A DNA stretch of 25,942 nt. Source: a virus. Its lineage: Duplodnaviria > Heunggongvirae > Uroviricota > Caudoviricetes. Both the position numbers and the translations under genes were made by a program. A model generated the notes under the pieces. That model was not told the DNA's origin. It did not search any database and saw nothing but the letters and a program-made list of their open reading frames with translations. Positions 1 through 17,341 of the stretch are shown here, in pieces. The DNA lies in the IMG/VR virus record IMGVR_UViG_2563366768_000033. One strand, given 5' to 3'. Positions within the stretch are counted from its first letter, which is position 1; each line of letters starts with the position of its first letter.

Positions 1-1254
1 ATGCTGGAACAAATGGGCATTGCCGCGAAGCAAGCCTCGTATAAATTAGCGCAACTCTCCAGCCGCGAAAAAAATCGCGTGCTGGAAAAAATCGCCGATG
101 AACTGGAAGCACAAAGCGAAATCATCCTCAACGCTAACGCCCAGGATGTTGCTGACGCGCGAGCCAATGGCCTTAGCGAAGCGATGCTTGACCGTCTGGC
201 ACTGACGCCCGCACGGCTGAAAGGCATTGCCGACGATGTACGTCAGGTGTGCAACCTCGCCGATCCAGTGGGGCAGGTAATCGATGGCGGCGTACTGGAC
301 AGCGGCCTGCGTCTTGAGCGTCGTCGCGTACCGCTGGGGGTTATTGGCGTGATTTATGAAGCGCGCCCGAACGTGACGGTTGATGTCGCTTCGCTGTGCC
401 TGAAAACCGGTAACGCGGTGATCCTGCGTGGTGGCAAAGAAACCTGTCGCACTAACGCGGCAACGGTGGTGGTGATTCAGGACGCCCTGAAATCCTGTGG
501 CTTACCGGCGGGTGCCGTGCAGGCGATTGATAATCCTGACCGTGCGCTGGTCAGTGAAATGCTGCGTATGGATAAATACATCGACATGCTGATCCCGCGC
601 GGCGGGGCTGGTTTGCATAAACTGTGCCGCGAGCAGTCGACGATCCCGGTGATCACAGGTGGTATAGGCGTATGCCATATTTATGTTGATGAAAGTGCAG
701 AGATTGCTGAAGCCCTGAAAGTAATCGTCAATGCGAAAACTCAGCGTCCGAGCACATGTAATACGGTAGAAACGTTGCTGGTGAATAAAAACATCGCCTA
801 TAGCTTCCTGCCCGCATTAAGCAAACAAATGGCGGAAAGCGGCGTGACGTTACACGCAGATGCATCTGCGCTGGCGCAGTTGCAGACAGGCCCTGCGAAG
901 GTGGTGGCGGTTAAAGCCGAAGAGTATGACGATGAGTTTCTGTCATTAGATTTGAACGTCAAAATCGTCAGCGATCTTGACGATGCCATCGCCCATATTC
1001 GTGAACACGGCACGCAACACTCCGATGCGATCCTGACCCGCGATATGCGCAACGCCCAGCGTTTTGTTAACGAAGTGGATTCGTCCGCTGTTTACGTTAA
1101 CGCCTCTACGCGTTTTACCGACGGCGGCCAGTTTGGACTGGGTGCGGAAGTGGCGGTAAGCACACAAAAACTCCACGCGCGTGGCCCAATGGGGCTGGAA
1201 GCACTGACCACTTACAAGTGGATCGGCATTGGTGATTACACCATTCGTGCGTAA
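1..1254 (+). CDS. proA: gamma-glutamyl phosphate reductase, complete (417 aa)
   Basis: ORF track product [16 protein letters not shown]...GDYTIRA matches full-length E. coli ProA as I recall it; ATG at 1, stop at 1252-1254. Confidence 0.95.
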
Positions 1255-1368: not shown

Positions 1369-1444
1369 GCCGATATAGCTCAGTTGGTAGAGCAGCGCAT
1401 TCGTAATGCGAAGGTCGTAGGTTCGACTCCTATTATCGGCACCA
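1369..1444 (+). tRNA. thrW: tRNA-Thr (anticodon CGT)
   Basis: 76-nt GCCGATATAGCTCAGTTGGTAGAGCAGCGCATTCGTAATGCGAAGGTCGTAGGTTCGACTCCTATTATCGGCACCA with encoded CCA; lies just 3' of proA as thrW does in E. coli. Confidence 0.95.
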
Positions 1445-1458
1445 TTTAAATCAATAAG

Positions 1459-2433
1459 TTACACATCATTAGTACCTTCCTTATTTTTTGACTGGGACAA
1501 ATTTGGGACCGATGGGTTCAGGATCGAGTCTATTTGCCGTGCGTGTTCGGTAAGGTGATTAGGTGCAAGGTGAGCATATCGACGAACCATTTCGATAGAC
1601 TCCCAGCCTCCCATTTCCTGTAACACTGACAACGGGACTCCGGCTTGAACCAGCCAACTTGCCCAGGTGTGTCTCAAGTCGTGAAATCTGAAATCATCAA
1701 TACCAGCCCGTCTCAGCGCCGCTTTCCAGGCTGTGTTTGCGTCATACCGCATCTTCCTTACTGTTGGCGCTTTCGTTCCGTCTGGTTTGGTACAGCTTTC
1801 CTTGTACACAAATACCCAACGGTGATGATTACCGATTTGTTTTTTCAATACGCGACATGCAGTATCATTCAGCGCAACGCCAATTGCGCGGTTTGATTTA
1901 CTCTCTTCCGGGTTTATCCATGCCACCCGGCGCTGCATATCTATTTGTTGCCATTCAAGGTTGATGATGTTCGAGCGTCTTAAGCCTGTTGCCAGTGCAA
2001 ATTCAACAACAGACTTTAATGGCTCCGGACATTCATCAATCAGCCTTTGTGCTTCATGGGGCTCCAGCCAGCGGAGCCGTTTATTCTTTGGTTGAGGCAC
2101 TTTAATAATTGGTGCCTTATCGAGCATTTTCCATTCACGCTCTGCGGCTCTTAGCAGGGCCTTTATAAATGAAAGATGCGTAGCCTTCGTTGCAACGGAC
2201 GCTGGTTTTGGCGTGTATTCTGGAACAGGTTTCCCTTTTTTTCTGCATGCTTCTGCCCTGAGTTTCCAGTTTTCCTCATGACGCCGGTTCGTCATTTTCT
2301 GCATTGCTGAATAAATTTTTGATTCAGTAATGTCTCTTAGTTGCATTCCTGCGAAATGTTGAAGCCAGAATCCGATCTGCTTTCCATTGAGCCTGTTTCT
2401 CTGCGCGACGTTCGCGGCGGCGTGTTTGTGCAT
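1459..2433 (-). CDS. phage tyrosine integrase, lambdoid IntD-like catalytic region; apparently 5'-truncated and fused to lambda N DNA
   Basis: 324-aa ORF with tyrosine-recombinase motifs ([17 protein letters not shown]...MVRRYAHL); adjacent to thrW and transcribed toward it. Its first 19 codons are lambda N sequence read in another frame, so the native arm-binding N-terminus (about 85 aa by comparison with recalled IntD) is missing. Confidence 0.8.
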
Positions 2434-2437
2434 CCAT
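2324..2437 (-). pseudogene. N: lambda N antiterminator, 5' fragment (first 20 codons) ending at a deletion junction
   Basis: Minus-strand frame reads [20 protein letters not shown], the arginine-rich N-terminus of lambda N, then diverges (DRILASTF...) and stops at 2324; located just downstream of nutL/PL as in lambda. Confidence 0.75.
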
Positions 2438-2594
2438 CTGGATTCTCCTGTTAGTTAGCTTTGGTTGTGTGTGGGAGTCGTAGTCCTGAACGAAAACACC
2501 CCGCAATGGCACATTGGCTGCTAATCCGGATTCGCACTTCCGGCCAATGCTTCGTTTCGTATCACACACACCAAAGCCTTCTGCTTTGAATGCT

Positions 2595-2625
2595 GCCCTT
2601 CTTCAGGGCTTAATTTTTAAGAGCA
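2595..2625 (-). promoter_or_regulatory. nutL (boxA 2617-2625, boxB hairpin 2595-2609)
   Basis: Minus strand reads TGCTCTTAAAAATTAAGCCCTGAAGAAGGGCAG, matching lambda nutL boxA-spacer-boxB (GCCCTGAAGAAGGGC stem-loop). Confidence 0.8.
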
Positions 2626-2654
2626 TCACCTTCATGGTGGTTAGTGCGTCCTGC

Positions 2655-2730
2655 TGATGTGCTTAGTATCACCGCTAGTGGTATTTGTGTCAACACCGCC
2701 AGAGGTAATTTATCACCGCAGATGGTTATC
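2655..2730 (-). promoter_or_regulatory. lambda PL promoter with operators OL1 (2667-2683), OL2 (2691-2707), OL3 (2711-2727)
   Basis: TATCACCGCTAGTGGTA, CAACACCGCCAGAGGTA and TATCACCGCAGATGGTT are 17-bp cI operator half-palindromes in lambda OL order; leftward -35 TTGACA (top-strand TGTCAA 2688-2693) and -10 GATACT (top-strand AGTATC 2665-2670). Confidence 0.85.
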
Positions 2731-2808
2731 TGTATGTTTTTTATATAGATTTATTTTTTGCAGGGTTGTGTGGCTTGGGAGGTGATCGAGAGATCAGAAT
2801 TGCGTTGT

Positions 2809-3198
2809 TTAGTGAGTTGCACCTATTAATTTTAAAATAAATACAATTGGTGTTTTTCGAGTTTTTCTTAACTCTTCATGCAGCTCCGTTCTCAGAATAT
2901 ATGATTTTTCGAGTTTGAAATTCTTGCGACCAGGCGTCTTATTGCCAGGCTCAGGAAGTGGAAGGCGTGTTTGAATGTCGAGTGGTGGACAGTCATAGAA
3001 GTAAATTCTATAAAGCTCAAGCGGTTCCCTACGTTCTTGTGATTGACGTTTTCCATTAAGATGGGAAAGAACCATTGACCATATTACTTTCATTATGCAT
3101 TGCGCAGTCAGTTCATGCTCGGCGAAGTGTTTACGATGCGTAGCATGAACACGCTGCATGAAAAAACCCGCATCAATTAAAATTGCTGCTTTCTTCAT
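2809..3198 (-). CDS. hypothetical protein (129 aa) in the slot lambda uses for rexAB between OL and cI; function unknown
   Basis: ORF MKKAAILIDAGFF... on the cI strand directly downstream of cI. Its N-terminus has a hydrophobic-IDxG start reminiscent of NYN/PIN-like nucleases but the motif set is incomplete. The last ~12 codons run into lambda-homologous DNA near 2845, so the 3' end may be junction-derived. Confidence 0.5.
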   Translation of the reverse strand: MKKAAILIDAGFFMQRVHATHRKHFAEHELTAQCIMKVIWSMVLSHLNGKRQSQERREPLELYRIYFYDCPPLDIQTRLPLPEPGNKTPGRKNFKLEKSYILRTELHEELRKTRKTPIVFILKLIGATH

Positions 3199-3325
3199 AA
3201 GAGTCCCAAAAAAATAGCCCAGAGCCGTTATGCAGATATTAACAATTGTCTGCGAACGGGGCTGGGCTTGGTTTAATTAATCTATGCCAAGTTGACTGTG
3301 CCGTCAACATAAAACTTACTTCCTA

Positions 3326-4042
<717 letters not shown>

Positions 4043-4049
4043 TTAAATC

Positions 4050-4116
4050 TATCACCGCAAGGGATAAATATCTAACACCGCGCGTGTTGACTACTTTACC
4101 TCTGGCGGTGATAATG
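4050..4116. promoter_or_regulatory. lambda OR region: OR3 (4050-4066), OR2 (4073-4089), OR1 (4097-4113), PRM and PR (-35 TTGACT 4087-4092, -10 GATAAT 4110-4115)
   Basis: TATCACCGCAAGGGATA / TAACACCGCGCGTGTTG / TACCTCTGGCGGTGATA between divergent cI and cro, followed by AAGGAGG and the cro ATG at 4140. Confidence 0.9.
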
Positions 4117-4130
4117 GTTGCATGTACTAA

Positions 4131-4340
<210 letters not shown>

Positions 4341-4347
4341 ATAACCC

Positions 4348-4379
4348 CGCTCTTACACATTCCAGCCCTGAAAAAGGGC
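4348..4379 (+). promoter_or_regulatory. nutR (boxA CGCTCTTA 4348-4355, boxB GCCCTGAAAAAGGGC 4365-4379)
   Basis: Direct match to the lambda nutR boxA/boxB arrangement between cro and cII. Confidence 0.8.
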
Positions 4380-4458
4380 ATCCAATTAAACCACACCTAT
4401 GGTGTATGCATTTATTTGCATACATTCAATCAATTGTTATCTAAGGAAATACTTACAT

Positions 4459-4752
4459 ATGGTTCGTGCAAACAAACGCAACGAGGCTCTACGAATCGAG
4501 AGTGCGTTGCTTAACAAAATCGCAATGCTTGGAACTGAGAAGACAGCGGAAGCTGTGGGAGTTGATAAGTCGCAGATCAGCAGGTGGAAGAGAGACTGGA
4601 TTCCAAAGTTCTCAATGCTGCTTGCTGTTCTTGAATGGGGGGTCGTTGACGACGACATGGCTCGATTGGCGCGACAAGTTGCTGCGATTCTCACCAATAA
4701 AAAACGCCCGGCGGCAACCGAGCGTTCTGAACAAATCCAGATGGAGTTCTGA
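4459..4752 (+). CDS. cII: CII transcriptional activator (97 aa)
   Basis: ATG at 4459 gives MVRANKRNEALRIESALLNKIAMLGTEKTAEAVGVDKSQISRWKRDWIPKFSMLLAVLEWGVVDDDMARLARQVAAILTNKKRPAATERSEQIQMEF, i.e. lambda CII; the ORF track's upstream extension (4399) is not used. Confidence 0.95.
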   Translation: MVRANKRNEALRIESALLNKIAMLGTEKTAEAVGVDKSQISRWKRDWIPKFSMLLAVLEWGVVDDDMARLARQVAAILTNKKRPAATERSEQIQMEF

Positions 4753-4774
4753 GGTCATTACTGGATCTATCAAC
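4697..4774 (-). ncRNA. oop: oop antisense RNA (about 77 nt) overlapping the cII 3' end
   Basis: Minus strand from 4774 reads GTTGATAGATCCAGTAATGACCTCAGAACTCCATCTGGATTTGTTCAGAACGCTCGGTTGCCGCCGGGCGTTTTTTATT, matching recalled lambda oop with its GC hairpin and U-tract terminator. Confidence 0.75.
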
Positions 4775-4784
4775 AGGAGTCATT

Positions 4785-5707
4785 ATGACAAATACAGCAA
4801 AAATACTCAACTTCGGCAGAGGTAACTTTGCCGGACAGGAGCGTAATGTGGCAGATCTCGATGATGGTTACGCCAGACTATCAAATATGCTGCTTGAGGC
4901 TTATTCGGGCGCAGATCTGACCAAGCGACAGTTTAAAGTGCTGCTTGCCATTCTGCGTAAAACCTATGGGTGGAATAAACCAATGGACAGAATCACCGAT
5001 TCTCAACTTAGCGAGATTACAAAGTTACCTGTCAAACGGTGCAATGAAGCCAAGTTAGAACTCGTCAGAATGAATATTATCAAGCAGCAAGGCGGCATGT
5101 TTGGACCAAATAAAAACATCTCAGAATGGTGTATCCCTCAAAACGAGGGAAAATCCCCTAAAACGAGGGATAAAACATCCCTCAAATTGGGGGATTGCTA
5201 TCCCTCAAATTGGGGGATTGCTATCCCTCAAAACAGGGGGACACAAAAGACACTATTACAAAAGAAAAAAGAAAAGATTATTCGTCCGAGAATTCTGGCG
5301 AATCCTCTGACCAGCCAGAAAACGATCTTTCTGTGGTTAAACCGGATGCTGCAATTCAGAGCGGCAGCAAGTGGGGAACAGCAGAAGACCTGACCGCCGC
5401 AGAGTGGATGTTTGACATGGTGAAGACCATCGCGCCATCAGCCAGAAAACCGAATTTTGCTGGGTGGGCTAACGATATCCGCCTGATGCGTGAACGTGAC
5501 GGACGTAACCACCGCGATATGTGTGTGCTTTTCCGCTGGGCCTGCCAGGACAACTTCTGGTCCGGTAACGTGCTGAGTCCGGCCAAACTCCGCGACAAGT
5601 GGACCCAGCTCGAAATCAACCGTAACAAGCAACAGGCAGGCGTGACAGCCAGCAAACCAAAACTCGACCTGACAAACACTGACTGGATTTACGGGGTGGA
5701 TTTATGA
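4785..5707 (+). pseudogene. O: lambda O replication initiator, frameshifted inside the ori iteron region
   Basis: N-terminal part (MTNTAKILNFGRGNFAG...ISEWCIPQNEGKSPKTRDKTSLKLGDCYPS) is in frame 0 and stops at 5393 after reading through unrelated sequence. The C-terminal O sequence (SKQGDTKDTITKEKRKDYSSENSG...DWIYGVDL) continues in frame +2 to the stop at 5705-5707. The shift coincides with a 23-bp tandem duplication at 5177-5222. Confidence 0.85.
5133..5240. repeat. ori-lambda iterons: five 18-bp O-binding repeats (5133, 5153, 5177, 5200, 5223) where lambda has four; third unit duplicated
   Basis: ATCCCTCAAAACGAGGGA, ATCCCCTAAAACGAGGGA, ATCCCTCAAATTGGGGGA (twice, each with TTGCT spacer = exact 23-bp tandem repeat 5177-5199/5200-5222), ATCCCTCAAAACAGGGGGA, followed by the AT-rich ori segment. 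Confidence 0.85.
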
Positions 5708-6015
5708 AAAACATCGCCGCACAGATGGTTAACTTTGACCGTGAGCAGATGCGTCGGATCGCCAACATCGATAACCAGGACATGACGATATCGGTCTGGG
5801 TCTTTCCTGATACTGATATTTCAGATGTATCGCGTGAGTTAATTGCGGCAATTAAACAGGGGTATCTAACAGTAAAAGCCGCCGGGGTATGGGCGGGGGG
5901 CATTGAAACACCTTCGGTGGAAACTCCATCGGAAGGCTCTAAATTTTTTGGTTTTGATATGGATAACGAATTCATCAGTGGTTTTGATGTAGGGGCATGG
6001 GGAGTATTACTCTGA
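5704..6015 (+). pseudogene. P: lambda P replication protein, first 21 codons, fused at a deletion junction to the 3' end of an unrelated (tail-module) reading frame
   Basis: ATG overlaps the O stop (ATGA) as in lambda; product begins MKNIAAQMVNFDREQMRRIAN (lambda P N-terminus) then switches to IDNQDMTISVWVFPDTDIS... and stops at 6013-6015. Confidence 0.7.
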
Positions 6016-6725
6016 TGGCGAAAAATGACTTTAAAGCGTTTGCAACTGATCGAAATGCCAATGTTATGTCGCAGGAGGAATGGGAAGCGTTGCCTGCGCT
6101 TATATCCGGATTTACAGCAGGGAAAGCATCCAGTGCGCAAGTCAATAAGGTTATTCGGCAGGCCAGCTTTATTGCTGCAGCTCTGGCCCAGTTTGTAAGT
6201 GATAAAACGCAACGGGATGTGCTTGATAATGGTGATCTGCCCGGTTTTGTTGAATTGCTGGGATCGGGGTTTGCTGTTGAATACCTGAGCCGCAAGAATC
6301 CGTTTGGCGATATCAAATCGGACGGCACGGTGAAAACGGCTCTTCAAAACCTTGGTTTGGGAGAAGCGGCAAAACGGGATGTGGGGACAGGGGAAAATCA
6401 GATACCGGACATGGCCTCTTTTGCCAGTGGTAATGGATGGATGAAATTACCCAACGGGAAAATCCTGCAATATGGTCGTGGTGCGGTTACGCCGACATTA
6501 TCGACGCAAACAATGAGAATTACATTCAGCATCCCTTTCCCCAAAAAAGCGGACTGCGCCATGCTTACTCATTCTGGTGATGGCGGTGCGCCTTTAGGCG
6601 CTGGGCGAGGGTTCGTGATGACTGCAGAAGGCCCAACGTTAACCGGCTTTAATTCTGCTTACAGAACGTCATCAACCAGCGACACGGTATCGATGAATTA
6701 CAGTTGGTGGGCTGTTGGTGAGTAA
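6015..6725 (+). CDS. side tail fibre protein, variable C-terminal segment (StfP-like); alternative start 5997
   Basis: Product [61 protein letters not shown]... is characteristic of e14/Mu/P1-type tail fibre variable regions; followed by a tail-fibre assembly gene and an inverted second set. Confidence 0.7.
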
Positions 6726-6736
6726 TTTTATTCAGG

Positions 6737-7189
6737 GTGATTTATATGGACGAATATGTTTATAGCGCAAGGCATAATGCTTTTTTCCCTGTGGATATGA
6801 TTGATAAATATAAATCAGAGGGATGGGATTTATCAGACGCTAAGGAAGTAAATCAAAATATTATCAGTGAGTTTATGGCTGAACCGCCACAAGGAAAAAT
6901 CCGTATTGCCGGAGATGATGGGCTGCCTGCGTGGGCAGATATTCCTCCACCCACGCATGAAGAGCTTATTGAAATTACTGAATCAGAAAGACAGCTACTA
7001 ATTAACCAGGCCAACGAATACATGAACAGTAAGCAATGGCCCGGTAAAGCGGCTATTGGTCGTCTGAAAGGTGACGAACTGACGCAATATAATTTGTGGC
7101 TGGATTATCTGGACGCACTGGAGCTGGTCGATACTTCCGGTGCGCCAGATATTGAATGGCCTACGCCTCCGGCAGTTCAGGCCAGATGA
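6737..7189 (+). CDS. tail fibre assembly protein (Tfa)
   Basis: 150-aa ORF directly after stf; C-terminus ...LTQYNLWLDYLDALELVDTSGAPDIEWPTPP is the conserved Tfa tail, mirrored by the convergent paralogue at 7161-7754. Confidence 0.8.
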   Translation: MIYMDEYVYSARHNAFFPVDMIDKYKSEGWDLSDAKEVNQNIISEFMAEPPQGKIRIAGDDGLPAWADIPPPTHEELIEITESERQLLINQANEYMNSKQWPGKAAIGRLKGDELTQYNLWLDYLDALELVDTSGAPDIEWPTPPAVQAR

Positions 7190-7754
7190 CATCCGGCGCG
7201 GTGCTGGTATCTGTTGCCGTCACCGCGTCAATGTAATCCAGCACGGCGTTAAGTCGGGTTGTTTCTGCCTGAGTCAGTTTCCGTCCGGCCTGTAACTTCA
7301 GCTGAATCAGACTAATGGAAGCCATTGCTGCATCAATCAGTGATTGGCGCTGTGCTTCTGCCGCGTCTACTGCGGCACTGTGTTGTGCCTCAGTGTCTGT
7401 CACCCATTTCTCACCATCCCATTTATCGTATGGCGTTAACGGTGAAATCGTGACATAACCGTCTTTGATGGCACCGATATAATCCACTGTAACAGCTGCG
7501 CCATTTTCGATTGAGTAAACAGTCTCATTGCGATGGTCTTCTTCATGGCTCCATCCCTTACCTGTAAATACTGCCACTCTTCCCGGAATGTTTTCGCCAG
7601 GGTCAATACCAGTGGAACAGGCGGGCATACTTACGCCAGTATTAATATATTCATCAGACCAGCCCGTATACTCAGATGTTTCAGCATCATAATAAAAACA
7701 ACGCATATCGCCCGGCACTGTAGCCAGCCCATTTTCATCAAAAACAGGTTTCAT
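7161..7754 (-). CDS. tail fibre assembly protein, alternative copy (TfaE-like) in inverted orientation
   Basis: 197-aa ORF MKPVFDENGLATVPGDMRCFYYDAETSEYTGW... ending ...LNAVLDYIDAVTATDTSTAPDVIWPELPEA; convergent and overlapping with the plus-strand tfa, as in G/P invertible segments. Confidence 0.8.
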   Translation of the reverse strand: MKPVFDENGLATVPGDMRCFYYDAETSEYTGWSDEYINTGVSMPACSTGIDPGENIPGRVAVFTGKGWSHEEDHRNETVYSIENGAAVTVDYIGAIKDGYVTISPLTPYDKWDGEKWVTDTEAQHSAAVDAAEAQRQSLIDAAMASISLIQLKLQAGRKLTQAETTRLNAVLDYIDAVTATDTSTAPDVIWPELPEA

Positions 7755-8251
7755 TATTTAGCCCTCACCAGAAAGTTAAATGCAATATTTCGCGGTCTGA
7801 CTGCAACAAAATTCACACCATCACCCACAGAGTTACTGGTGAAATTAAATCGTGAAAATCCTGGCTGATTTCCGGCGATGCCATCATGAAAGTTAATTGC
7901 GTGTCCCGCACCTTCGCCTATATTCCCGGCAAACTGAGAAAAGTTTGTAGCTGCCTGCCAGCTTAATAATTCGCGACCACCGTCTGCACCTCGCCCGTCA
8001 TCCCAGATACGAATGAAATCACCGCGGGCTTCAGGTAATACCAGCGAAGGAAACACTTTCGCCAGCACAGGATAATCAGTGGCAGAGAATTTCGCGCCGT
8101 TGAACTTCAAAAACACCATACAGGACCAGCTGTCGATTACAGTATTTGGCATTGCAGCGGACGGCCAGAAGAACGGAACGCCAATAGCTGGAGCACCTTC
8201 TCCCAAACCAACGTTTATGAAAATGCAGAAATAACGAGCAAATGGCATCAT
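7754..8251 (-). CDS. alternative tail fibre C-terminal segment (StfE-like), currently in the off orientation
   Basis: 165-aa minus-strand ORF abutting the pin upstream region with no constant tail-fibre N-terminal part attached; position equivalent to stfE of e14. Confidence 0.65.
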   Translation of the reverse strand: MMPFARYFCIFINVGLGEGAPAIGVPFFWPSAAMPNTVIDSWSCMVFLKFNGAKFSATDYPVLAKVFPSLVLPEARGDFIRIWDDGRGADGGRELLSWQAATNFSQFAGNIGEGAGHAINFHDGIAGNQPGFSRFNFTSNSVGDGVNFVAVRPRNIAFNFLVRAK

Positions 8252-8277
8252 TCCTGCTTTTGTCAGGGAGATCTACC

Positions 8278-8832
8278 ATGCTTATTGGCTATGTACGTGT
8301 GTCAACAAATGACCAGAACACAGATCTACAACGTAATGCGCTGAACTGTGCAGGATGCGAGCTGATTTTTGAAGACAAGATAAGCGGTACAAAGTCCGAA
8401 AGGCCGGGACTGAAAAAACTGCTCAGGACATTATCGGCAGGTGACACTCTGGTTGTCTGGAAACTGGATCGGCTGGGGCGCAGTATGCGGCATCTGGTCA
8501 TTCTGGTTGAGGAGTTGCGCGAACGTGGCGTTAATTTTCGCAGCCTGACGGATGCTATTGATACCAGTACCCCAATGGGGCGCTTTTTCTTTCATGTGAT
8601 GGGGGCCCTGGCTGAAATGGAACGAGAACTGATTGTTGAACGAACAAAAGCTGGACTGGAAGCTGCTCGCGCACAGGGACGAATTGGTGGACGTCGTCCC
8701 AAACTTACACCAGAACAATGGGCGCAGGCCGGACGATTAATTGCAGCAGGAATTCCTCGCCAGAAGGTAGCGATCATCTATGATGTTGGTGTATCGACAC
8801 TGTATAAGAAGTTTCCGGCCGGAGATAAATGA
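8278..8832 (+). CDS. pin: serine DNA invertase (Pin/Gin/Hin family), 184 aa
   Basis: From ATG at 8278: MLIGYVRVSTNDQNTDLQRNALNCAGCELIFEDKISGTKSERPGLKKLLRTLSAGDTLVVWKLDRLGRSMRHLV... with catalytic Ser in VRVSTNDQ and C-terminal HTH; placed directly after the inverted stf/tfa pair. Confidence 0.9.
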   Translation: MLIGYVRVSTNDQNTDLQRNALNCAGCELIFEDKISGTKSERPGLKKLLRTLSAGDTLVVWKLDRLGRSMRHLVILVEELRERGVNFRSLTDAIDTSTPMGRFFFHVMGALAEMERELIVERTKAGLEAARAQGRIGGRRPKLTPEQWAQAGRLIAAGIPRQKVAIIYDVGVSTLYKKFPAGDK

Positions 8833-8889
8833 AACCGTAGCACGTCGTATGCAAGATCGTGCTGCGGTTTATGCTTACCACTTGAAGAT

Positions 8890-9759
<870 letters not shown>

Positions 9760-9842
9760 CTAACCCTTTGAATTTACATAGCGCAAAAAGATACCTTTCC
9801 TCATAATGTGAGCTAATTTTATGTTTCGTTTGATGATCGGGT

Positions 9843-9904
9843 CGGTCTCGAAAACCGGAGTAGGGGCAACTCTACCGGGGGTTCAAATCCCCCTCTCTCC
9901 GCCA
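9843..9904 (+). other. 3' fragment (about 62 nt) of tRNA-Ser serU; attachment-site remnant
   Basis: CGGTCTCGAAAACCGGAGTAGGGGCAACTCTACCGGGGGTTCAAATCCCCCTCTCTCCGCCA matches the serU tRNA from the anticodon arm to the CCA end; the 5' third of the tRNA is absent. Confidence 0.8.
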
Positions 9905-10486
9905 CTTTATCAATGACTTATCTCCCGACTTCCCGTCTTGCTTTTCCTAAACAGAACAATCGTAGAATATTCTTGAAGGGTTAGATCGTCACTGTTTTCT
10001 GTTCGATACTGTGACATTCAGCACTTGATTCGCTATGGATCTGACAGGAAGGTTTTGAGCGAAAATCTGCAGTTATTCAGTCGTTTTCTTATCGGTCACC
10101 ATTATTCTTTTAGACATTGATCCTACAAAGCTGCCGCAAAGTTGGTGGTGGGAACTGAAGTTGCGTAGAGAAGGGGTCAATACCCGGAGGCAAACATGGG
10201 CTGGCAAAAGTGTAGCGGTATTAGGCGCAGCTATTTAGCCTAGTTATGTTTTATGAAAACTTGATATCATATAAGTGTCTTACTTATTGGCTGTAAATAA
10301 GTTTTTCCTAAGGAATTGTTTCTTGAGTATCATTTGTAACTGTAACGGAATTTATAATCCTTTGCTTTATTGTTACGGTATTTTTTATCACACCCTATTT
10401 TTAGTGGTTTTTTATACTGAAGTTTGGCAAAGTGAACTTTATATACATATACTTCATCCTGGTTTCAGTTAAATTGGGGGGATGAT

Positions 10487-11230
10487 ATGGCAACTACATG
10501 TTCAGTTATATTGATTTTGGAGTCCTTTGATGTTTATTTCGGAAAAGAGAGTGTGTTTCTGGAGAGAGGTTCATCTGTACTTGTCGACTCTAGCTCTAGA
10601 GATTTTTTCCTGACATATCCTGAAAGAGTGATAGTGGCGGATTTTGGCGCTGAGTTTATTAGTCGCTATTTGAAAGCTAATAACTTAAGGGATATTTCTG
10701 ATTGTAGGGAATATCCATCTTATTTAAAAATAAACTTTGCTGACTTCAGTTTAATTAAAGGATTAATTAGTTGGGCTAATCACTGTGCTGAATACATAGA
10801 AATTTTTGATGAGTCTATTGCTTTTACATGTCTCTCTGCATTTTCTTCTGAAAAACAATTTGGAGTATTTCTGTTTGGATGTTTGAAAAGCACAGGGGCT
10901 AAAGTTAAAACGATTATTCATACGGATTTATCTGCACCATGGCGTCTTAAGGATATATCATCAAGATTATATCTCAGCGAAAGTTTACTAAAGAGGAAAT
11001 TGAAAGAAGAGGGGGTATCATTCAGTAAGATCATACTTGATGAGAGGATGCAAATGGCTGAATATTTACTCAGCACTCGTTGTTATCCTATTAGTAAAGT
11101 AGCTAAGGTCTGTGGTTATGCCAGTGTCTCATACTTTACTTATGTATTTAGACGTTATTTTGGTGTTTCTCCAAGTCAATACTCTCAGAGGAGTTCAGAA
11201 AGTAAAATTCTTACTCACCAGGGAATCTGA
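10487..11230 (+). CDS. AraC/XylS-family transcriptional regulator (AppY/Rns-like)
   Basis: 247-aa product with C-terminal dual HTH (WRLKDISSRLYLSESLLKRKLKEEGVSFSKIILDERMQMAEYLL...KVAKVCGYASVSYFTYVFRRYFGVSPSQY); AT-rich gene and upstream region; GGGGG Shine-Dalgarno before the ATG. Confidence 0.75.
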   Translation: MATTCSVILILESFDVYFGKESVFLERGSSVLVDSSSRDFFLTYPERVIVADFGAEFISRYLKANNLRDISDCREYPSYLKINFADFSLIKGLISWANHCAEYIEIFDESIAFTCLSAFSSEKQFGVFLFGCLKSTGAKVKTIIHTDLSAPWRLKDISSRLYLSESLLKRKLKEEGVSFSKIILDERMQMAEYLLSTRCYPISKVAKVCGYASVSYFTYVFRRYFGVSPSQYSQRSSESKILTHQGI

Positions 11231-11271
11231 TCATTGTTCTTGCCCCCTTATTTCCAGACAGGGGGGGTATC

Positions 11272-11720
11272 TTAAGTTAACGTTACCCGCTGACGTCGAT
11301 ATTCTCGCGGAGAGCGATAACCCAACGCACTGTGCGGATGGTTTTCATTGTAATGTTCGATCGCCACTGCAAGATTATGCAATGCCGTTCTTACATTCGG
11401 TTTCGGCATGAACGCGATGTAGTCTTCCTTCATCGTTTTCACGAACCTTTCTGCAATTCCATTACTCTGAGGACTGCTGATTGCCGTTGTGCAGGGCTCC
11501 AGATTCAACTCTCTGGCGAACTGCCGTGTTTCATGCGCTCTATACGCTGAACCGTTATCTGTCAGCCACTGGATGGACTGTTCCGGTACTTTATCGCCAA
11601 AGCGTTTTTCTATCGCTCCTAACATGACATCCTGCACTGTCGCTTTATCGTAACCTCCCGTGCTTGCGGCCCAGTCTATGGCTTCACGATCGCAACAGTC
11701 CAGGGCGATTCATCTGGGCC
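11272..11720 (-). mobile_element. IS2-family (IS3 group) transposase orfB, 3' fragment only
   Basis: Minus-strand translation ...[72 protein letters not shown]...[14 protein letters not shown] parallels the C-terminal integrase-core region of IS2 InsD as recalled; no orfA, no 5' half and no terminal inverted repeats seen. Confidence 0.7.
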
Positions 11721-11984
11721 AATCCTTGCTCATAACAGGCATTCACTTCAGTCATGGCAGAAAGGTATGCATGCTGGAGAAGTCGTGAAAGAAAAGAAGA
11801 CTGCTGCGCCGTTTGTCGTCACGTTTATCTTCATTGGCTATGCAAGTCGTAATACAAGGTGGGACAAAACTGAGACACATAAGGCCTCGCAATGGCTTGC
11901 AAGGCTTTACATGTTTTGATGTGGTGGGACGTGTGAGCGCAGTGTTGATGGGGTAATGCTTTGAATTAGAAGCGGATTCTTATA

Positions 11985-12030
11985 ATTCGTAATGCGAAGG
12001 TCGTAGGTTCGACTCCTATTATCGGCACCA
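11985..12030 (+). other. direct repeat of the thrW 3' end (46 nt); junction between the two stacked elements
   Basis: ATTCGTAATGCGAAGGTCGTAGGTTCGACTCCTATTATCGGCACCA is identical to thrW 1399-1444; followed 160 bp later by a P4-type integrase gene. Confidence 0.85.
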
Positions 12031-12192
12031 TCTCAACTTCCTCAAACGTCCGTATTAGTCCATAAAATCTCTGATTTATAACATTTTTTATTCTTTTAAG
12101 TCCATAGTAGTCCGTAACCATCCAGTAGAATCCGGTACTGAATGTGTATAGGATTGTGTATATGTTCCTGTTCGGTCTGGATTCCTATACAC

Positions 12193-13374
12193 ATGCCTTT
12201 AAACGATATGCAGATTCGCCGCGCTAAGCCTGAAGCTAAAGCCTATACATTTGGAGATGGGCTAGGGTTGTCATTACTTATAGAACCTAATGGAAGCAAG
12301 AGTTGGCGGTTCCGCTATCGCTATGCCGGCAAACCCAAAATGATCTCGCTTGGTGTTTACCCAACGATCACCCTTGCCGATGCTCGTTCCCGTCGTGATG
12401 AAGCTCGAAAACTTGTGGCAGAAGGAAAGAACCCTAGTGAGGTTCGAAAAGAGCAAAAGCTAGCTATGCAAACAGAGTCAGAGAACGCCTTCGAAAAGAT
12501 AGCCAGAGAGTGGCATCAACTTAAATCTGCTAAATGGTCGGCGGGATATGCATCAGACATCATGGAAGCGTTTAAGAACGACATTTTTCCTTATGTCGGA
12601 ACAAGGCCTGTGGGAGAGATTAAACCGCTAGAGCTGCTGAACGTTCTGCGTAAAATTGAGAAACGTGGTGCGTTGGAGAAAATGCGCAAAGTGCGGCAGC
12701 GTTGCTCCGAAGTGTTTCGCTACGCAATTGCAACGGGTAGGGCGGAGTACAATCCTGCGGCTGATCTCTCCAGCGCTCTCGAAGTACACCAATCCAATCA
12801 TTTCCCATTCCTAAAAGCTGATGAGATACCTGATTTTCTACGTGCCTTAGAGGGTTACTCCGGGAGTAAGCTTGTCCAGATAGCCACGAAATTACTGATG
12901 ATTACGGGTGTGAGAACCATCGAATTACGCGCGGCATTATGGCAAGAATTTGATCTGGATAACGCTATTTGGGAAATTCCTGCTGAAAGGATGAAAATGC
13001 GTAGGCCACATCTTGTGCCCTTATCATCTCAAGCGGTAGATTTACTCAATGAACTCAAGATCATGACAGGGAACTATCGTTATGTTTTTCCAGGGCGGAA
13101 CGATCCGAATAGGCCAATGAGCGAAGCGAGTATAAATCAAGCCATTAAGCGTATTGGGTATGGAGGAAAAGTCACTGGACATGGTTTTCGTCATACCCTT
13201 TCTACAATCCTGCATGAGCAAGGTTTTGAGAGTGCTTGGATTGAAATCCAGTTGGCTCATGTAGATAAAAATTCTATTAGGGGGACTTATAACCATGCTC
13301 AATATTTTAGTGGAAGGAAGTCTATGATGGACTGGTACAGTAATTTGATATTTGAAAGACTAAAAAGGAGTTAA
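12193..13374 (+). CDS. P4-family tyrosine integrase
   Basis: From ATG at 12193: MPLNDMQIRRAKPEAKAYTFGDGLGLSLLIEPNGSKSWRFRYRYAGKPKMISLGVYP... (P4/CP4-57-type N-terminus) with C-terminal catalytic region HGFRHTLSTILHEQG...RGTYNH; the ORF track's upstream extension is not used. Confidence 0.9.
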   Translation: MPLNDMQIRRAKPEAKAYTFGDGLGLSLLIEPNGSKSWRFRYRYAGKPKMISLGVYPTITLADARSRRDEARKLVAEGKNPSEVRKEQKLAMQTESENAFEKIAREWHQLKSAKWSAGYASDIMEAFKNDIFPYVGTRPVGEIKPLELLNVLRKIEKRGALEKMRKVRQRCSEVFRYAIATGRAEYNPAADLSSALEVHQSNHFPFLKADEIPDFLRALEGYSGSKLVQIATKLLMITGVRTIELRAALWQEFDLDNAIWEIPAERMKMRRPHLVPLSSQAVDLLNELKIMTGNYRYVFPGRNDPNRPMSEASINQAIKRIGYGGKVTGHGFRHTLSTILHEQGFESAWIEIQLAHVDKNSIRGTYNHAQYFSGRKSMMDWYSNLIFERLKRS

Positions 13375-13377
13375 TTT

Positions 13378-13794
13378 GTGTCTCAACCACTTTCGGAAAT
13401 ATTGACATGGGATGATGAACAATGGGAGGTATTTGTCCATGATTGGCTTATTGTCTGTAAATCAGATGATTACCCGTGGAGCGAACGTTTGGGAGGAGCT
13501 GGAGATAAAGGTAGAGACGTTGTTGGATATAAATCGGATCCTAACGTAGAAGGTTATTCTTGGGATAATTATCAATGCAAACTGTACAAAAAAAGTTTAG
13601 GGTTCTCTGATGTTGTAGTTGAGTTTGGAAAACTTATCTATTTTACTCTGAATGGTGATTATCCCATCCCTCAGAAGTACTTTTTTGTGGCACCCTATGA
13701 TTTATCTACTACATTTTCTAATTTATTGAAAAATAAAAACGAGCTTAAAAAAGCAGTCCTTGATTCATGGGATTCAGCAATTTCAAAAAAATAA
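13378..13794 (+). CDS. cargo gene 1, N-terminal part: Mrr-like PD-(D/E)xK nuclease domain (frame broken at A7 tract 13785-13791)
   Basis: GTG start 7 nt after AAGGAG (13365-13370) and 4 nt after the int stop; product contains GGAGDKGRDVVGY...(17 aa)...YQCKLY, the GxGDxGxD / QxK pattern of Mrr-type nuclease cores. Very AT-rich. Confidence 0.6.
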   Translation: MSQPLSEILTWDDEQWEVFVHDWLIVCKSDDYPWSERLGGAGDKGRDVVGYKSDPNVEGYSWDNYQCKLYKKSLGFSDVVVEFGKLIYFTLNGDYPIPQKYFFVAPYDLSTTFSNLLKNKNELKKAVLDSWDSAISKK

Positions 13795-14384
13795 CTAAAA
13801 AGATTGATATTCCATTAGATGATGAAATAAAAAAATATATTGAGGATTTTGATTTTAGTATTTTTTACTCTCTACCCTTATCATTGATTTTAAATGATAT
13901 TGCAAATACACACCTTTATTTTAAGTACTTTAACGAGCTGTATGTCGTGAGAATCCCTCCAAATGAAATTCCAACATACAATTCAAAAAAAGAGTCTGTA
14001 TATGTTAATGCACTGCTTCAAGCCTATTCAGAGCATGGAAATAAAACTTATAGTTCTTTCTTAGAGCTTGATGATCCATACAGACGACACTTTAATAATA
14101 GTAGAAATGATTTTTATTTTGCATCTTCGCTTGAGGTTTTTGTCCGCGAAGTATTTAAAGATGATGTATTCAAAGCATTGAAATGTTACATTTCATCTTC
14201 AATTGAACCCGTCTTTTATGAAGACCATAATTATGCATTTATTAGGTGTAATGCAGTCTTGAAGCAGGCTGTTCTGACACCAATTGCACATTCAGTACTA
14301 TCAAAAATATGTGAAGCAAATGATAAAAAAGGAATATGCCATCATTTGGTTAATGATGGTGAAGTAATTTGGACGGTGAGATAA
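13767..14384 (+). CDS. cargo gene 1, C-terminal part (unknown domain); probably the continuation of 13378-13794
   Basis: This frame is open from 13764 and overlaps the previous ORF's end across an A7 run; one extra A would join them into a single ORF of about 336 codons. Stop TAA at 14382-14384 overlaps the next ATG. Confidence 0.55.
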   Translation: MGFSNFKKITKKIDIPLDDEIKKYIEDFDFSIFYSLPLSLILNDIANTHLYFKYFNELYVVRIPPNEIPTYNSKKESVYVNALLQAYSEHGNKTYSSFLELDDPYRRHFNNSRNDFYFASSLEVFVREVFKDDVFKALKCYISSSIEPVFYEDHNYAFIRCNAVLKQAVLTPIAHSVLSKICEANDKKGICHHLVNDGEVIWTVR

Positions 14385-14842
14385 TGGTTAGAATTTATAA
14401 TTCAAGTTTAGAAGTGGCATGTCGAATGGCGAAAGTGCTCGTCGCTATTTATCCTTCTTCATTAAGCCTTGAACGGCTTATTTGTTTTGATTTTATTTTA
14501 GTAAATCTTAAGGATTTTTTACCTGAAGAGATTAGTCTTCATCCTCCAATACCCCGTAGAGATGCTCAGTTAGCCCTAAAACGAGAGATTGTTTTAGAAT
14601 CATTGGCTTTGTTGCAAGGCTATGAACTAGCCTCAAAAATTTATACACATCGTGGTTTTGTATATAAAGCTTCTGAAAAAACATATGCATTTACAAATTC
14701 TCTACATAATGAATATGTTGCGCAGATGGAGCATAATATAAATTTGGTGGTTAAGTTATATAGTGATATTCCTGATGAGCAGTTGCAATCAATTATAAAA
14801 AATAAAATTGGCAAATATGATATGGAATTTAATTATGAATGA
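14384..14842 (+). CDS. cargo gene 2: small protein (152 aa), predicted mostly helical; candidate middle component
   Basis: ATG at 14384 overlaps the upstream stop (TAATG); product MVRIYNSSLEVACRMAKVLVAIYPSSLSLERLICFDF...; its stop overlaps the next gene's ATG (ATGAATGA). Confidence 0.6.
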   Translation: MVRIYNSSLEVACRMAKVLVAIYPSSLSLERLICFDFILVNLKDFLPEEISLHPPIPRRDAQLALKREIVLESLALLQGYELASKIYTHRGFVYKASEKTYAFTNSLHNEYVAQMEHNINLVVKLYSDIPDEQLQSIIKNKIGKYDMEFNYE

Positions 14843-15467
14843 CAATTTTTTTACGTTCAGAAAAATAAAGGTAACCGGATTCAATAAATTAGATGCTATA
14901 ATTGAATTTGGTTCTAAATTGACTATTTTATATGGTGGTTCTGACTCTGGAAAAACATACATATATTATTTGATTCGATATTTATTAGGGAGTGAAAAAC
15001 TAAAAAATAAAGATATCGATCATGCTCAAGGTTATGATTTAGCCTATCTGGAATTTAATTTTCAAGGTAGGGTAATGACAATTGAGAGGTCTCTTCAGGA
15101 TAGCGCCCATTACAGATTATATGATTCGAGCATTGAAAATGTTAGTGAAGCTAATCTGTTGATGGTTTTTTCCAAAAGTGCTTCGTCTAAAAAGAGTTTT
15201 TCATCATACTTTTATGGTAGGTTGAATTTCAAAGAGGCTAAAGTAAGAACAAACTTAAGTAATACTCTTCATAAATTTAATCTTAATAATGTTTTTGAAT
15301 TTTTTTGTATTGATGAATTAAGAGTGTTAACTGAGAAGTCGTTAATTCTTTCTGATATTCCTAGCGAGGAGACAAAAAGAAAGTCTGAATTTAAATTCCT
15401 TTTAACTCAGAGAGATGATACTAACTCCTTAGCAGAAAAACCAAATAAAAAAGCAAGATATTTTTAA
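14835..15467 (+). CDS. cargo gene 3, N-terminal head of an SMC/Rad50-like ABC ATPase (Walker A); ends at an in-frame TAA
   Basis: MNDNFFTFRKIKVTGFNKLDAIIEFGSKLTILYGGSDSGKTYIYYLIRYLLG: classic SMC/RecF-type N-terminus with Walker A GGSDSGKT. The ORF stops at TAA 15465-15467 inside a T5A7 tract while the same frame stays open downstream. Confidence 0.7.
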   Translation: MNDNFFTFRKIKVTGFNKLDAIIEFGSKLTILYGGSDSGKTYIYYLIRYLLGSEKLKNKDIDHAQGYDLAYLEFNFQGRVMTIERSLQDSAHYRLYDSSIENVSEANLLMVFSKSASSKKSFSSYFYGRLNFKEAKVRTNLSNTLHKFNLNNVFEFFCIDELRVLTEKSLILSDIPSEETKRKSEFKFLLTQRDDTNSLAEKPNKKARYF

Positions 15468-16088
15468 AAAAATCAAATTGCAAATATTTATGAGGAATTG
15501 AAAGCGCAATTAATTTATCCTGAATATGATCAAGTCATTGTTTCAAGAGAACTTGAGAAAGTAGAGCAAGATATTGAATCATCGAAAGATATATTGAAAG
15601 GTATTGTTGATGCACTTGATGATAAGAAGCAATTATTAAAAGAGTTAAGTGATGAATTATATTCAATCAGTGACAGGGAAAAATACTTATCATTACTCAT
15701 TGAAAGATTTAGTCTTCTTAAAGACCAATACTTTATAGATCTACAAAGAATAGATGTTGTATCACAGGCGAATTTCTATTTAAATAATTTTGCAGATATT
15801 TATTGTGAGTTCTGTAATACACCGCAAAAAAAAGAAAATGAAATATCATATGATGATTGTTTTTTGTCGTGTAATGCAGAAAAATTGAAAATCAAAAGCC
15901 AGCTGAAAGGATTAATTGAATCAATCGGATCTAATGTTCGCGAACATGAATTAATTATGTTAAGAAAAAATGATGTTAATGAAATTTATCAATCAGAAAA
16001 AAGTGATTTTAAGACGTTAGAAGATAAAAATATAAAACAATACATTCATCTCTTGAATCACTTTATGAATATAAAGACAATCTTTTAA
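15468..16088 (+). CDS. cargo gene 3 continued: coiled-coil segment with CxxC...CxxxC zinc-hook-like motif
   Basis: Same frame as 14835-15467, open right after the TAA, with no ATG for about 150 codons (the ORF track uses TTG at 15498). Heptad-like charged/leucine-rich sequence and YCEFCN...(14 aa)...CFLSCN (15804-15872). Confidence 0.55.
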   Translation, partial: KNQIANIYEELKAQLIYPEYDQVIVSRELEKVEQDIESSKDILKGIVDALDDKKQLLKELSDELYSISDREKYLSLLIERFSLLKDQYFIDLQRIDVVSQANFYLNNFADIYCEFCNTPQKKENEISYDDCFLSCNAEKLKIKSQLKGLIESIGSNVREHELIMLRKNDVNEIYQSEKSDFKTLEDKNIKQYIHLLNHFMNIKTIF

Positions 16089-16654
16089 TGGATCACACAA
16101 AACATAGCATTCTATCTTCATTACAAGATAAAGAAGATGATGTTGACGAACTTAAATACTCCGCCGAGGACTTTGACTCCTTAACAGTAGCTGATTTGTA
16201 TGATATAGAAATAGCGATGCAAGACTTTTTGAATGATATAAATTTTGAAAATTCTAAAGATAACAAAGTGCGATTTGACGAAGATACATATGACTTTAAT
16301 ATCAATGGGAAACGCCGAGGAATGTTTGGTAAAGGTACCCGTGCAGTAATGCATGCTATATTTACCATTTGCTTTGCGGAATTTTTATCAAGAAAAGGGA
16401 ATCCATTCATTGGATTTGTTGTGCTTGATAGTCCATTAGTGACGCACTTTGATAAAGATAGAGGGGGTTCTCTATCGGATGTTAATAGCGTCAGTCTCAG
16501 TGATTCATTTTATCACGCATTAATCAAAAGGGACTATAATTTCCAGATTGTAATTCTTGAGAATAAAGGTCCGACGTTCCAAATAAAAATTAATGATGCA
16601 AATAAAATCCATAACTTAAATAAGAATGGAAGCTCTGGTTTTTATCCTGTTTAA
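16088..16654 (+). CDS. cargo gene 3, C-terminal ABC head segment (Walker B-like FIGFVVLDSP), separate ORF or frame-shifted continuation
   Basis: ATG overlaps the upstream stop (TAATG); product contains ...GKGTRAVMHAIFTICFAEFLSRKGNPFIGFVVLDSPLVTHFD, i.e. a run of hydrophobics ending in D as in Walker B, with Ser where the catalytic Glu normally sits. Confidence 0.55.
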   Translation: MDHTKHSILSSLQDKEDDVDELKYSAEDFDSLTVADLYDIEIAMQDFLNDINFENSKDNKVRFDEDTYDFNINGKRRGMFGKGTRAVMHAIFTICFAEFLSRKGNPFIGFVVLDSPLVTHFDKDRGGSLSDVNSVSLSDSFYHALIKRDYNFQIVILENKGPTFQIKINDANKIHNLNKNGSSGFYPV

Positions 16655-17063
16655 TACATTAAAAATATAACTGCTAATTGGGGTGCTCGAAATTATATTT
16701 CGTTTCGAGCGCTCAGTTCATTTCTAAATAATTTGCAAAATTATTTTGGGTACTTTCGCCTCTACACTTCCTTCGGGTGGTTCCACAATAATGGATCTCA
16801 CCGGCGTTTGATATTTTATAATCTAACCCCTTAGCGCGCGCAGCCCCCCACGCCTGCTCGCTTCGCTTAACAGACTGGTTTTCATGCATTCCGCAAATCG
16901 TCTCAGAAGCCACCACACAAGGGCTTTCGCGTCAAAAATGGTGCATGAGAATCATGCGTTTTCATGCGCTATAGACATGCACTCATGCGCTCTCAGGCCA
17001 GCCAGGGAAAAGGCGTAAAAAATCCCAGTACTGGACCGGGATTACGTGGGCTTTTTTTGCTAA

Positions 17064-17336
17064 TCAGACAGGAATTTGCTGACGGCTTGACAGCTTTGAC
17101 GCGGAGCCATAGCGATTGAGAGTTTGCTGTTGTTTTTCCGGCATTTGTGCTTTCTCTGATTCCTGTTCATTGCGCCGGGGCTTCATGATTATCGTATCCA
17201 CACTTTCCAGTGCGGTAAATGTGTAGGAACATTCAAGATTCTGGCACTGATACCATGAGCGTTTAACCGATGGTGCTTCATAGGCGGAGGTTCTGGCGTG
17301 TGCCGTCGTACCGCATTCGGGACATTTAAGTGCCAT
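17064..17336 (-). CDS. Ogr/Delta-family zinc-finger late-gene activator (90 aa)
   Basis: MALKCPECGTTAHARTSAYEAPSVKRSWYQCQNLECSYTFTALESV: CxxC...CxxxxC arrangement and sequence typical of P2 Ogr / P4 Delta. Confidence 0.85.
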   Translation of the reverse strand: MALKCPECGTTAHARTSAYEAPSVKRSWYQCQNLECSYTFTALESVDTIIMKPRRNEQESEKAQMPEKQQQTLNRYGSASKLSSRQQIPV

Positions 17337-17341
17337 TAATA

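Follow-up and report, generated by a model that had tools for sequence, protein, structure and literature searches.

Prophage Sp1 and its fused open reading frame

We analyzed a 25,942-nt stretch of DNA (IMG/VR virus record IMGVR_UViG_2563366768_000033, hereafter the window), which represents the thrW locus of Escherichia coli O157:H7 and contains, at 1445-12031, the lambdoid prophage named Sp1 in strain Sakai and CP-933H in strain EDL933. Locus and genes match those of Sp1/CP-933H, and we treat the two as the same element, with no biological difference between them. Attachment-site (att) repeats at a tRNA gene, the presence of phage genes, and the lack of essential modules over the 10.6 kb from thrW to its 3' repeat mark it as a cryptic prophage. 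What survives is a lambda-type immunity region, a tail fibre/chaperone/Pin module, and cargo genes. Between the first two lies a 103-amino acid (aa) open reading frame (ORF), which an earlier note on this DNA, made from its letters alone, had read as the beginning of lambda replication gene P, cut after codon 21 and joined to a tail-fibre module.

A blunt junction between P and a baseplate gene

The ORF opens with an ATG at 5704, within an ATGA that it shares with the TGA ending the C-terminal frame of O (5195-5707), in the position and with the start of lambda P. Its first 21 residues are identical to those of the P proteins of lambda and phage 21 (21/21), and the corresponding DNA (5704-5767) matches lambda P nt 1-64 throughout (64/64), which bears out the proposal of a normal start followed by a cut after codon 21. 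The 599 nt that begin at 5768 match the vB_EcoM-611R5 and NCTC9022 prophages at 97-98% identity, where they span the 3' end of a DUF2612 gene and the 5' part of a tail-fibre gene, and the right half of the predicted protein shares 82 of 86 residues (95%) with positions 141-226 of an intact 226-aa DUF2612 protein. The last 81 codons of the DUF2612 gene are kept, along with its overlap into the tail-fibre gene stf. In a three-way alignment, P reads GCCAACA followed by ACATG, the DUF2612 gene CAGATAG followed by TCGATAACC, and the window GCCAACA followed by TCGATAACC; the hybrid codon formed at the join, A from the left and TC from the right (Ile), keeps both genes in frame.

The breakpoint was mapped with a 200-bp probe centred on the junction, which was compared with 5,426 complete E. 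coli genomes. About 3,100 genomes other than the carriers match only probe positions 1-100 (annotated as "replication protein P") or 101-200 (annotated as "DUF2612 domain-containing protein"), and never across. Because these matches stop or start at 100/101, the breakpoint lies at 5767/5768, and alignment to lambda P and the DUF2612 gene, along the lines of the check proposed in the earlier note, places it at the same position. There is no microhomology at the join: the flanking bases differ between the two parents, and no match in the non-carrier genomes crosses the probe midpoint. A microhomology-mediated deletion was accordingly rejected, there being no shared base at 5767/5768, and the blunt join indicates that the deletion was homology-independent. 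An assembly artefact is ruled out by the presence of the junction in 204 independent complete assemblies. Nor is the junction a chance pattern (BLAST E-values of 0); only the in-frame phase is expected by chance, one time in three.

Origin of the two halves

Lambda P is recognized by the Pfam family PF06992 (Phage_lambda_P) at 6.4e-62 over residues 38-198 of a protein of ~233 aa, whereas the fused ORF gives no PF06992 hit and aligns with P over residues 1-21 only. The P-family variant that the earlier note had set against its own reading is thus largely refuted: the P domain is missing, and the downstream 80 codons are DUF2612 DNA. The intact 226-aa relative matches Pfam DUF2612 (PF11041) in full (2.5e-47, 161.6 bits, profile positions 1-177), while the fused ORF reaches 20.3 bits, under the cut-off of 23.5, and covers only positions 135-177 of 181.

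Several lines of evidence link the intact DUF2612 protein to the baseplate. Its PHROG consists of structural proteins, it is related in sequence to solved baseplate wedge proteins (9zd7 gp89, 7kh1 gp17, and Pam3 gp23), and its gene is always found after Baseplate_J and before the tail-fibre gene, with which it shares a TGATG overlap. The same TGATG stop/start overlap leads from the fused ORF into stf at 6013-6017, as in the intact relatives, and the Baseplate_J gene upstream is deleted. In SfI and PapM-32-1, two relatives described below, a Mu Gp48/YmfQ-type protein occupies the DUF2612 position.

As anticipated in the earlier note, the ORF switches after the P remnant to unrelated sequence that runs into an stf/tfa/pin block: the DUF2612 3' end is followed by stf, tfa, an inverted tfa'/stf' pair, and pin. 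The suggested junction with a tail module stands, and the partner can be specified further. A side tail fibre of the e14, Rac, or lambda type was rejected: the cut lies in the wedge gene before stf, the fibre is of the short gp53-like myophage type, and the whole is a myophage baseplate/fibre/Pin module of the kind found in e14, SfV, and ST64B.

Databases name the ORF "partial replication protein P for prophage CP-933H", and RefSeq annotation by the Prokaryotic Genome Annotation Pipeline (PGAP) labels 5755-6015 "phage replication protein, missing N-terminus" (12356-12616 in L001; 5970-6230 in L021). A scan of NCBIfam returned no family for either half of the ORF or for the intact proteins. The replication-protein label on the baseplate-derived half is an annotation error, probably inherited from the earlier name given to the fusion.

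Distribution of the junction

The full 200-bp probe was found at 100% identity in 204 of the 5,426 complete E. coli genomes, and among 60 sampled carriers all strains with a stated serotype are O157. The junction, which the earlier note had suggested looking for in related strains, is thus shared with an identical sequence within O157. Sharing of the junction with the O55:H7 progenitor lineage was rejected, since it is absent from strain CB9615 of that serotype, where thrW is occupied by another lambdoid siphophage of full length. Beyond E. coli genomes, a 40-mer spanning the junction had no exact match in 185,579 species-representative genomes and occurred in 8 short IMG/VR contigs. Because the carriers form one clone, this conservation is uninformative with respect to selection.

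In CB9615, a lambda-like siphophage with nleG, espW (a pseudogene), and espM2 takes the place of Sp1; downstream of it come fragments of tfa and int, an nleB gene, and the P4-like element Sp2. This arrangement indicates that the thrW site turned over between O55:H7 and O157:H7.

Within O157, strain 9000 is 100% identical to the window over 15,950 bases (2851-18800) and 99.93% identical over 1-2852. The single structural difference is a copy of the insertion sequence (IS) IS629/IS1203 at window position 2851/2852, present in strain 9000 and missing from the window; Sakai-type strains also differ from the window in carrying this IS629 copy. EDL933 (CP008957.1) has the IS-free structure of the window.

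Remaining genes and further decay

The features of the locus are collected in Table 1. Two elements stand in tandem, as indicated by the thrW repeats at 11985-12036 and 24911-24934, the latter being shorter: the 10.6-kb Sp1, and then Sp2, a P4-like satellite at 12142-24934 that is 99.7% identical in O55:H7 CB9615. The P4-type integrase of Sp2 is followed by genes that PGAP labels as an "ABC-three component system" and by an AAA ATPase (about 13378-15467), which look like defence-type cargo in the variable region of the satellite.

Table 1 Features of the thrW locus and matches to phage SfI (window positions)
Feature	Position	Strand	Remarks
proA	1-1254		window start
tRNA-Thr thrW	1369-1444	+	attL side of Sp1
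Truncated SfI-type integrase joined to N'	1459-2437	-	first deletion junction at 2377
Lambda immunity region	3326-4752		cI 3326-4039 (minus), OR/pR, cro 4140-4340, cII 4459-4752
Replication gene O with ori	4785-5707	+	frameshifted by exact 23-bp tandem duplication, 5177-5199 and 5200-5222
Fused 103-aa ORF, P'(1-21)::'DUF2612(146-226)	5704-6015	+	in frame
P remnant, nt 1-64 (codons 1-21 and first base of codon 22)	5704-5767	+	100% identical to P of lambda, phage 21, and SfI
Deletion junction	5767/5768		blunt, 0 nt microhomology; split matches of the 200-bp probe at 100/101
DUF2612 baseplate-wedge gene 3' end, last two bases of codon 145 to stop	5768-6015	+	in frame with P'
stf tail-fibre gene	6015-6725	+	Pfam Gp53-like_C; PHROG tail fibre
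Pin-invertible segment	6347-8216		20-nt inverted repeats, 6347-6366 and 8197-8216
tfa	6746-7189	+	Caudo_TAP domain
tfa'	7161-7754	-	Caudo_TAP domain
Alternative stf C-terminus	7754-8215	-	
pin (pinE) serine invertase	8278-8832	+	Resolvase and HTH_7 domains; PGAP "pinE site-specific DNA recombinase"
thrW 3'-end repeat (last ~47 nt)	11985-12036	+	attR of Sp1 and attL of P4-like Sp2
SfI match, attL and int	1399-2377		SfI 21231-22209, 98.9%
SfI match, start of N	2377-2463		SfI 27904-27990, 97.7%
SfI match, cI to P nt 64	3322-5767		97.5%
SfI match, short stretch in fibre gene	6288-6420		88.8%
SfI match, DNA next to attP/attR	11860-12031		SfI 21106-21277, 97.1%

The immunity region is nearly that of lambda, with 233 of 237 residues identical in cI, 66 of 66 in Cro, and 97 of 97 in CII, and with 2 substitutions in the operator region (OR), OR1-3 being nearly identical; a pR-like promoter lies at 4087-4115. 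Immunity to lambda-immunity phages is accordingly expected in O157:H7 strains. Next to cI, unrelated DNA at 2852-3321 replaces the rexA/rexB of lambda and SfI. A 129-aa ORF there (2809-3198, minus strand) aligns with a PHROG of unknown function over no more than the first 108 of its 246 positions, and is the one cut by the IS629 copy at 2851/2852 in Sakai-type strains; in phage ev099, the same place is taken by an "NYN domain" gene.

Further losses are found on either side of this region. At window position 2377, the companion N-int junction mentioned in the earlier note is confirmed by comparison with SfI: an integrase gene short of ~82 codons at its N-terminal end adjoins the initial 20 codons of N, which encode its arginine-rich boxB-binding part. 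N starts at 2437 and is out of frame with int, and the 324-aa int ORF (1459-2433, minus strand) begins at a fortuitous ATG. In O, the tandem duplication adds a fifth ori iteron and appears as a 23-nt gap in alignments to SfI and lambda; removing one copy restores a 299-aa O protein, and PGAP labels the gene "frameshifted".

Split BLAST matches, protein alignments, and annotation agree that the genes normally found between P and the tail fibres (nin, Q, lysis, head, and tail) are gone, as the earlier note had stated. In particular, Q, the lysis genes, and the genes for head, tail shaft, and packaging are absent from the PGAP annotation of identical sequence. The lambda tR2 region is gone as well, and a scan of the plus strand from pR to stf for intrinsic terminators, which is blind to the Rho-dependent tR1, returned none that was convincing.

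This gene content agrees with the published assessment of Sp1, which, in its part on this prophage, portrays a lambdoid element in a highly degraded state, with a repressor and an antirepressor, defective in integration and replication, and devoid of everything else, including morphogenesis, packaging, and lysis functions (PMC2669165). In the same part, no excision, replication, or packaging of Sp1 was observed, and its residual early genes were clearly induced by mitomycin C (PMC2669165). "Host specificity" is scored there as absent, although stf and tfa are present in the window, and the entry on Sp1 does not locate the breakpoint exactly or trace the right half to a baseplate gene (PMC2669165).

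In the cargo region, between a GIY-YIG gene (8890-9663) and an AraC-family gene (10487-11230), lies a host-like insert of ~340 bp (9843-10182), made up of the last 62 nt of the tRNA-Ser gene serU and ~280 bp of its downstream chromosomal flank. The insert matches the serU locus in 5,423 of the 5,426 E. coli genomes and also occurs in the PapM-32-1 thrW prophage, and it looks like host DNA from the serU attachment site that was picked up into the phage cargo region.

An active tail-fibre switch

The module to the right of the junction has the architecture of a Din-family switch, with an invertase, inverted repeats 1,830 nt apart (the left one within stf), and two opposed Caudo_TAP genes. The constant part of stf extends to about 6346; beyond it comes the variable C-terminus used in the present orientation. 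Among the 204 junction-bearing genomes, 85 have the segment oriented as in the window and 118 match the junction flipped in silico at ≥99%; the EDL933 assembly CP008957.1 is in the opposite orientation to the window. The occurrence of both orientations among carriers is population evidence that the Pin switch remains active in a prophage devoid of a tail.

Relatives of Sp1

A partial model for the left part and the extremities of Sp1 is SfI (NC_027339), a viable, contractile-tailed lambdoid phage of Shigella flexneri that integrates at thrW and has a lambda-like early half (PMC3636060). The two share the attachment site, the integrase, lambda-type N, cI, cro, cII, O, and P, and the attP-proximal DNA, and the overall gene order of SfI likewise ends with baseplate, tail fibre, cargo, and attP. 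Unlike Sp1, SfI is complete and carries a Mu Gp48-type wedge gene, rexAB next to cI, and gtr serotype-conversion cargo, without a pin switch; Sp1 has instead a DUF2612 wedge gene and GIY-YIG/AraC cargo.

The right arm finds its counterpart in E. coli PapM-32-1 (NZ_CP049204.1), which carries a full-length thrW prophage of ~39 kb that matches the window at 1-2377 (98.7%) and 8198-12031 (97.4%, 3.8 kb). At its right end, the order is baseplate J, wedge, stf, tfa, inverted tfa'/stf', pinE, GIY-YIG, AraC, IS remnant, and attR. It thus has the chromosomal site of Sp1, its int up to window position 2377, and its right arm from pinE to attR, but differs in its non-lambda immunity and replication module, its ymfQ-type wedge gene and fibre base, and the absence of deletions. 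A contiguous block of DUF2612 gene, stf, invertible segment, and pin is found in intact prophages of the 611R5/NCTC9022 type.

The decayed lambdoid e14 of E. coli K-12 resembles Sp1 in having a wedge gene, a fibre with alternative C-termini, two tfa genes, Pin, and nuclease-type cargo, in a gene order that we take to be ymfQ-stfP-tfaP / tfaE-stfE-pinE. The comparison with e14 in the SfI paper supports this order (PMC3636060). In contrast to Sp1, e14 is inserted in icd, encodes a non-lambda repressor of its own and a full ymfQ, and is not cut within P, whereas the wedge gene of Sp1 is truncated and of the DUF2612 type.

A probable deletion within a single prophage

Overall, the fused ORF is a real but ordinary deletion scar in an already described, heavily decayed prophage. 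The element, its decay, and the partial P gene were known before, P having been annotated as partial since the EDL933 genome. We consider it likely, with a probability of roughly 0.78, that this scar was left by one homology-independent (illegitimate) deletion inside a single thrW-integrated lambdoid prophage with a contractile tail, built like SfI, and that it was fixed in the ancestor of O157:H7.

Under this model, the original prophage would have had the order attL-int-xis...N-cI-cro-cII-O-P-ren-nin-Q-lysis-terminase-head-tail-baseplate-stf/tfa/pin-cargo-attR. The deletion would reach from P nt 64 into codon 145 of the wedge gene (DUF2612), with a loss of ~23-25 kb that would comprise the rest of P, ren, nin, Q, the lysis and packaging genes, the head, the sheath and tube, and most of the baseplate. 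A second gap, at the N-int junction, would have removed xis to ral, equivalent to SfI 22210-27903 and thus to 5.7 kb (5,694 bp). The two deletions and the 23-bp O frameshift would together lock the element in place, leaving over the lambda-type immunity region, an active Pin switch with two fibre/chaperone sets, the cargo genes, and the att sites.

This account is quantitatively consistent with a single phage genome. The P-wedge gap is equivalent to SfI 32202-38389 plus 1 to ~16717, i.e., ~22.9 kb, or to ~25 kb with a structural module of the 611R5 type, and the sum of Sp1 (10,587 bp), the 5,694-bp gap, and ~22.9 kb is ~39.2 kb, compared with 38,389 bp for SfI. Because the extremities, the gene order, and this sum all fit one phage, they give good support to a single prophage with two internal deletions.

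Several points weigh against this model. No undeleted parent, combining the lambda arm and a DUF2612 tail in one prophage, was found among phages and complete E. coli genomes searched with Sp1 in full and with its junction and cargo regions as queries; SfI and PapM-32-1 are partial models only, so the one-event model rests on analogy with these two. In both, the wedge gene is of the Mu Gp48/YmfQ type and not of the DUF2612 type. For simple replication slippage, a blunt join lacking microhomology is unusual as well, and the presumed lack of function of the ORF is judged from the parts that it has lost. As to the breakage itself, the sequence cannot tell topoisomerase-type illegitimate recombination from an IS629-linked deletion.

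The strongest alternative, which we nevertheless regard as unlikely, is a deletion across two tandem thrW prophages, a lambda-like one on the left (int...O-P) and a myophage on the right (baseplate-stf-pin-cargo-attR), with loss of the right part of the former, the left part of the latter, and the att site between them. Tandem arrays at thrW are the rule here, as illustrated by Sp2, which follows Sp1 past a thrW repeat, and the CB9615 locus includes a full lambda-like siphophage whose CII protein is the same and whose cII-O-P DNA is 96% identical, followed by tfa and integrase fragments and by Sp2. Further, the closest intact DUF2612-stf blocks are found in prophages with non-lambda early regions. 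However, in SfI a contractile tail goes together with immunity and replication genes of the lambda type in one thrW phage (PMC3636060), which makes a second prophage unnecessary. Sp1 plus the two SfI-equivalent gaps amounts to one phage genome, both extremities of Sp1 match the same phage types (SfI and PapM-32-1), and neither an internal att site nor a second int has left a trace in Sp1.

Quite unlikely, in our estimate, is a loss made by an insertion sequence, i.e., an IS629 (IS1203) copy in P or in the baseplate gene that was later removed with its flanks, through adjacent deletion or excision of the IS-excision enhancer (IEE) type. IS629 is abundant in O157, where IS629/IEE-mediated deletions occur. 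It is also active in Sp1, given that strain 9000 and others have a copy at 2851/2852 that is absent from the window and EDL933, and that strain 319 has a further copy in the cargo region. On general grounds, a blunt join would be compatible with transposase-linked breakage. Position 5767/5768, on the other hand, has no IS end, target duplication, or extra base, and no sampled genome has an IS at either breakpoint.

After SOS induction, pR transcripts may plausibly continue through O and the fusion and on into stf-tfa, because the early genes are inducible, tR2 is gone, and there is no obvious intrinsic terminator. Extending this, Sp1 could have been kept as a compact module, in which cI/pR would confer immunity, SOS-induced pR transcription would run from cro-cII-O'-P'::'wedge into a phase-variable fibre/chaperone pair, the P start and TGATG would couple stf translation, and the fibres would be donated to contractile-tail phages or serve as a recombination reservoir; we consider this very improbable. 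More generally, the earlier note had seen in the junctions a pattern in which immunity and accessory functions are retained while the rest decays. The intact cI, cro, and cII, the two orientations of the Pin segment, and the early genes reported as inducible by mitomycin C (PMC2669165) fit such retention, but do not demonstrate it, as the carriers represent one clone, O carries a frameshift, and both N and int are truncated.

The 103-aa ORF itself is most likely a by-product, in frame by chance, that would have no function of its own, as it lacks the P domain and retains no more than the final third of the wedge protein. That it would be functional, as a P variant or as a fusion selected for replication control or for tail-fibre expression or assembly, is hardly credible: the frame, the ribosome-binding site and start of P, and the natural TGATG coupling into stf are kept, PGAP calls both halves "phage replication protein", and the sequence is invariant in 204 genomes, yet the 21 remaining P residues include none of the Pfam domain, the right half is 95% identical to a baseplate protein and without similarity to P (the PGAP label tracing to the name of the fusion ORF) and covers only the end of the DUF2612 profile, below the family cut-off, and invariance reflects clonality, with a one-in-three prior for the frame.

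Implications for O157:H7 prophages

Taken together, these results make the ancestry of Sp1 clearer, as that of an SfI-like, thrW-integrating lambdoid myophage. The current RefSeq annotation of the baseplate-derived half of the ORF needs correcting, and the 40-mer across 5767/5768 provides a clone-specific marker. If Sp1 did act as a compact fibre-donating module, the host range of the O157 "defective prophage pool" would be altered via co-resident or infecting phages. Finally, the combination of near-lambda cI, cro, and cII with a flipping fibre switch is relevant to how phage susceptibility and structural variation in O157:H7 are read.

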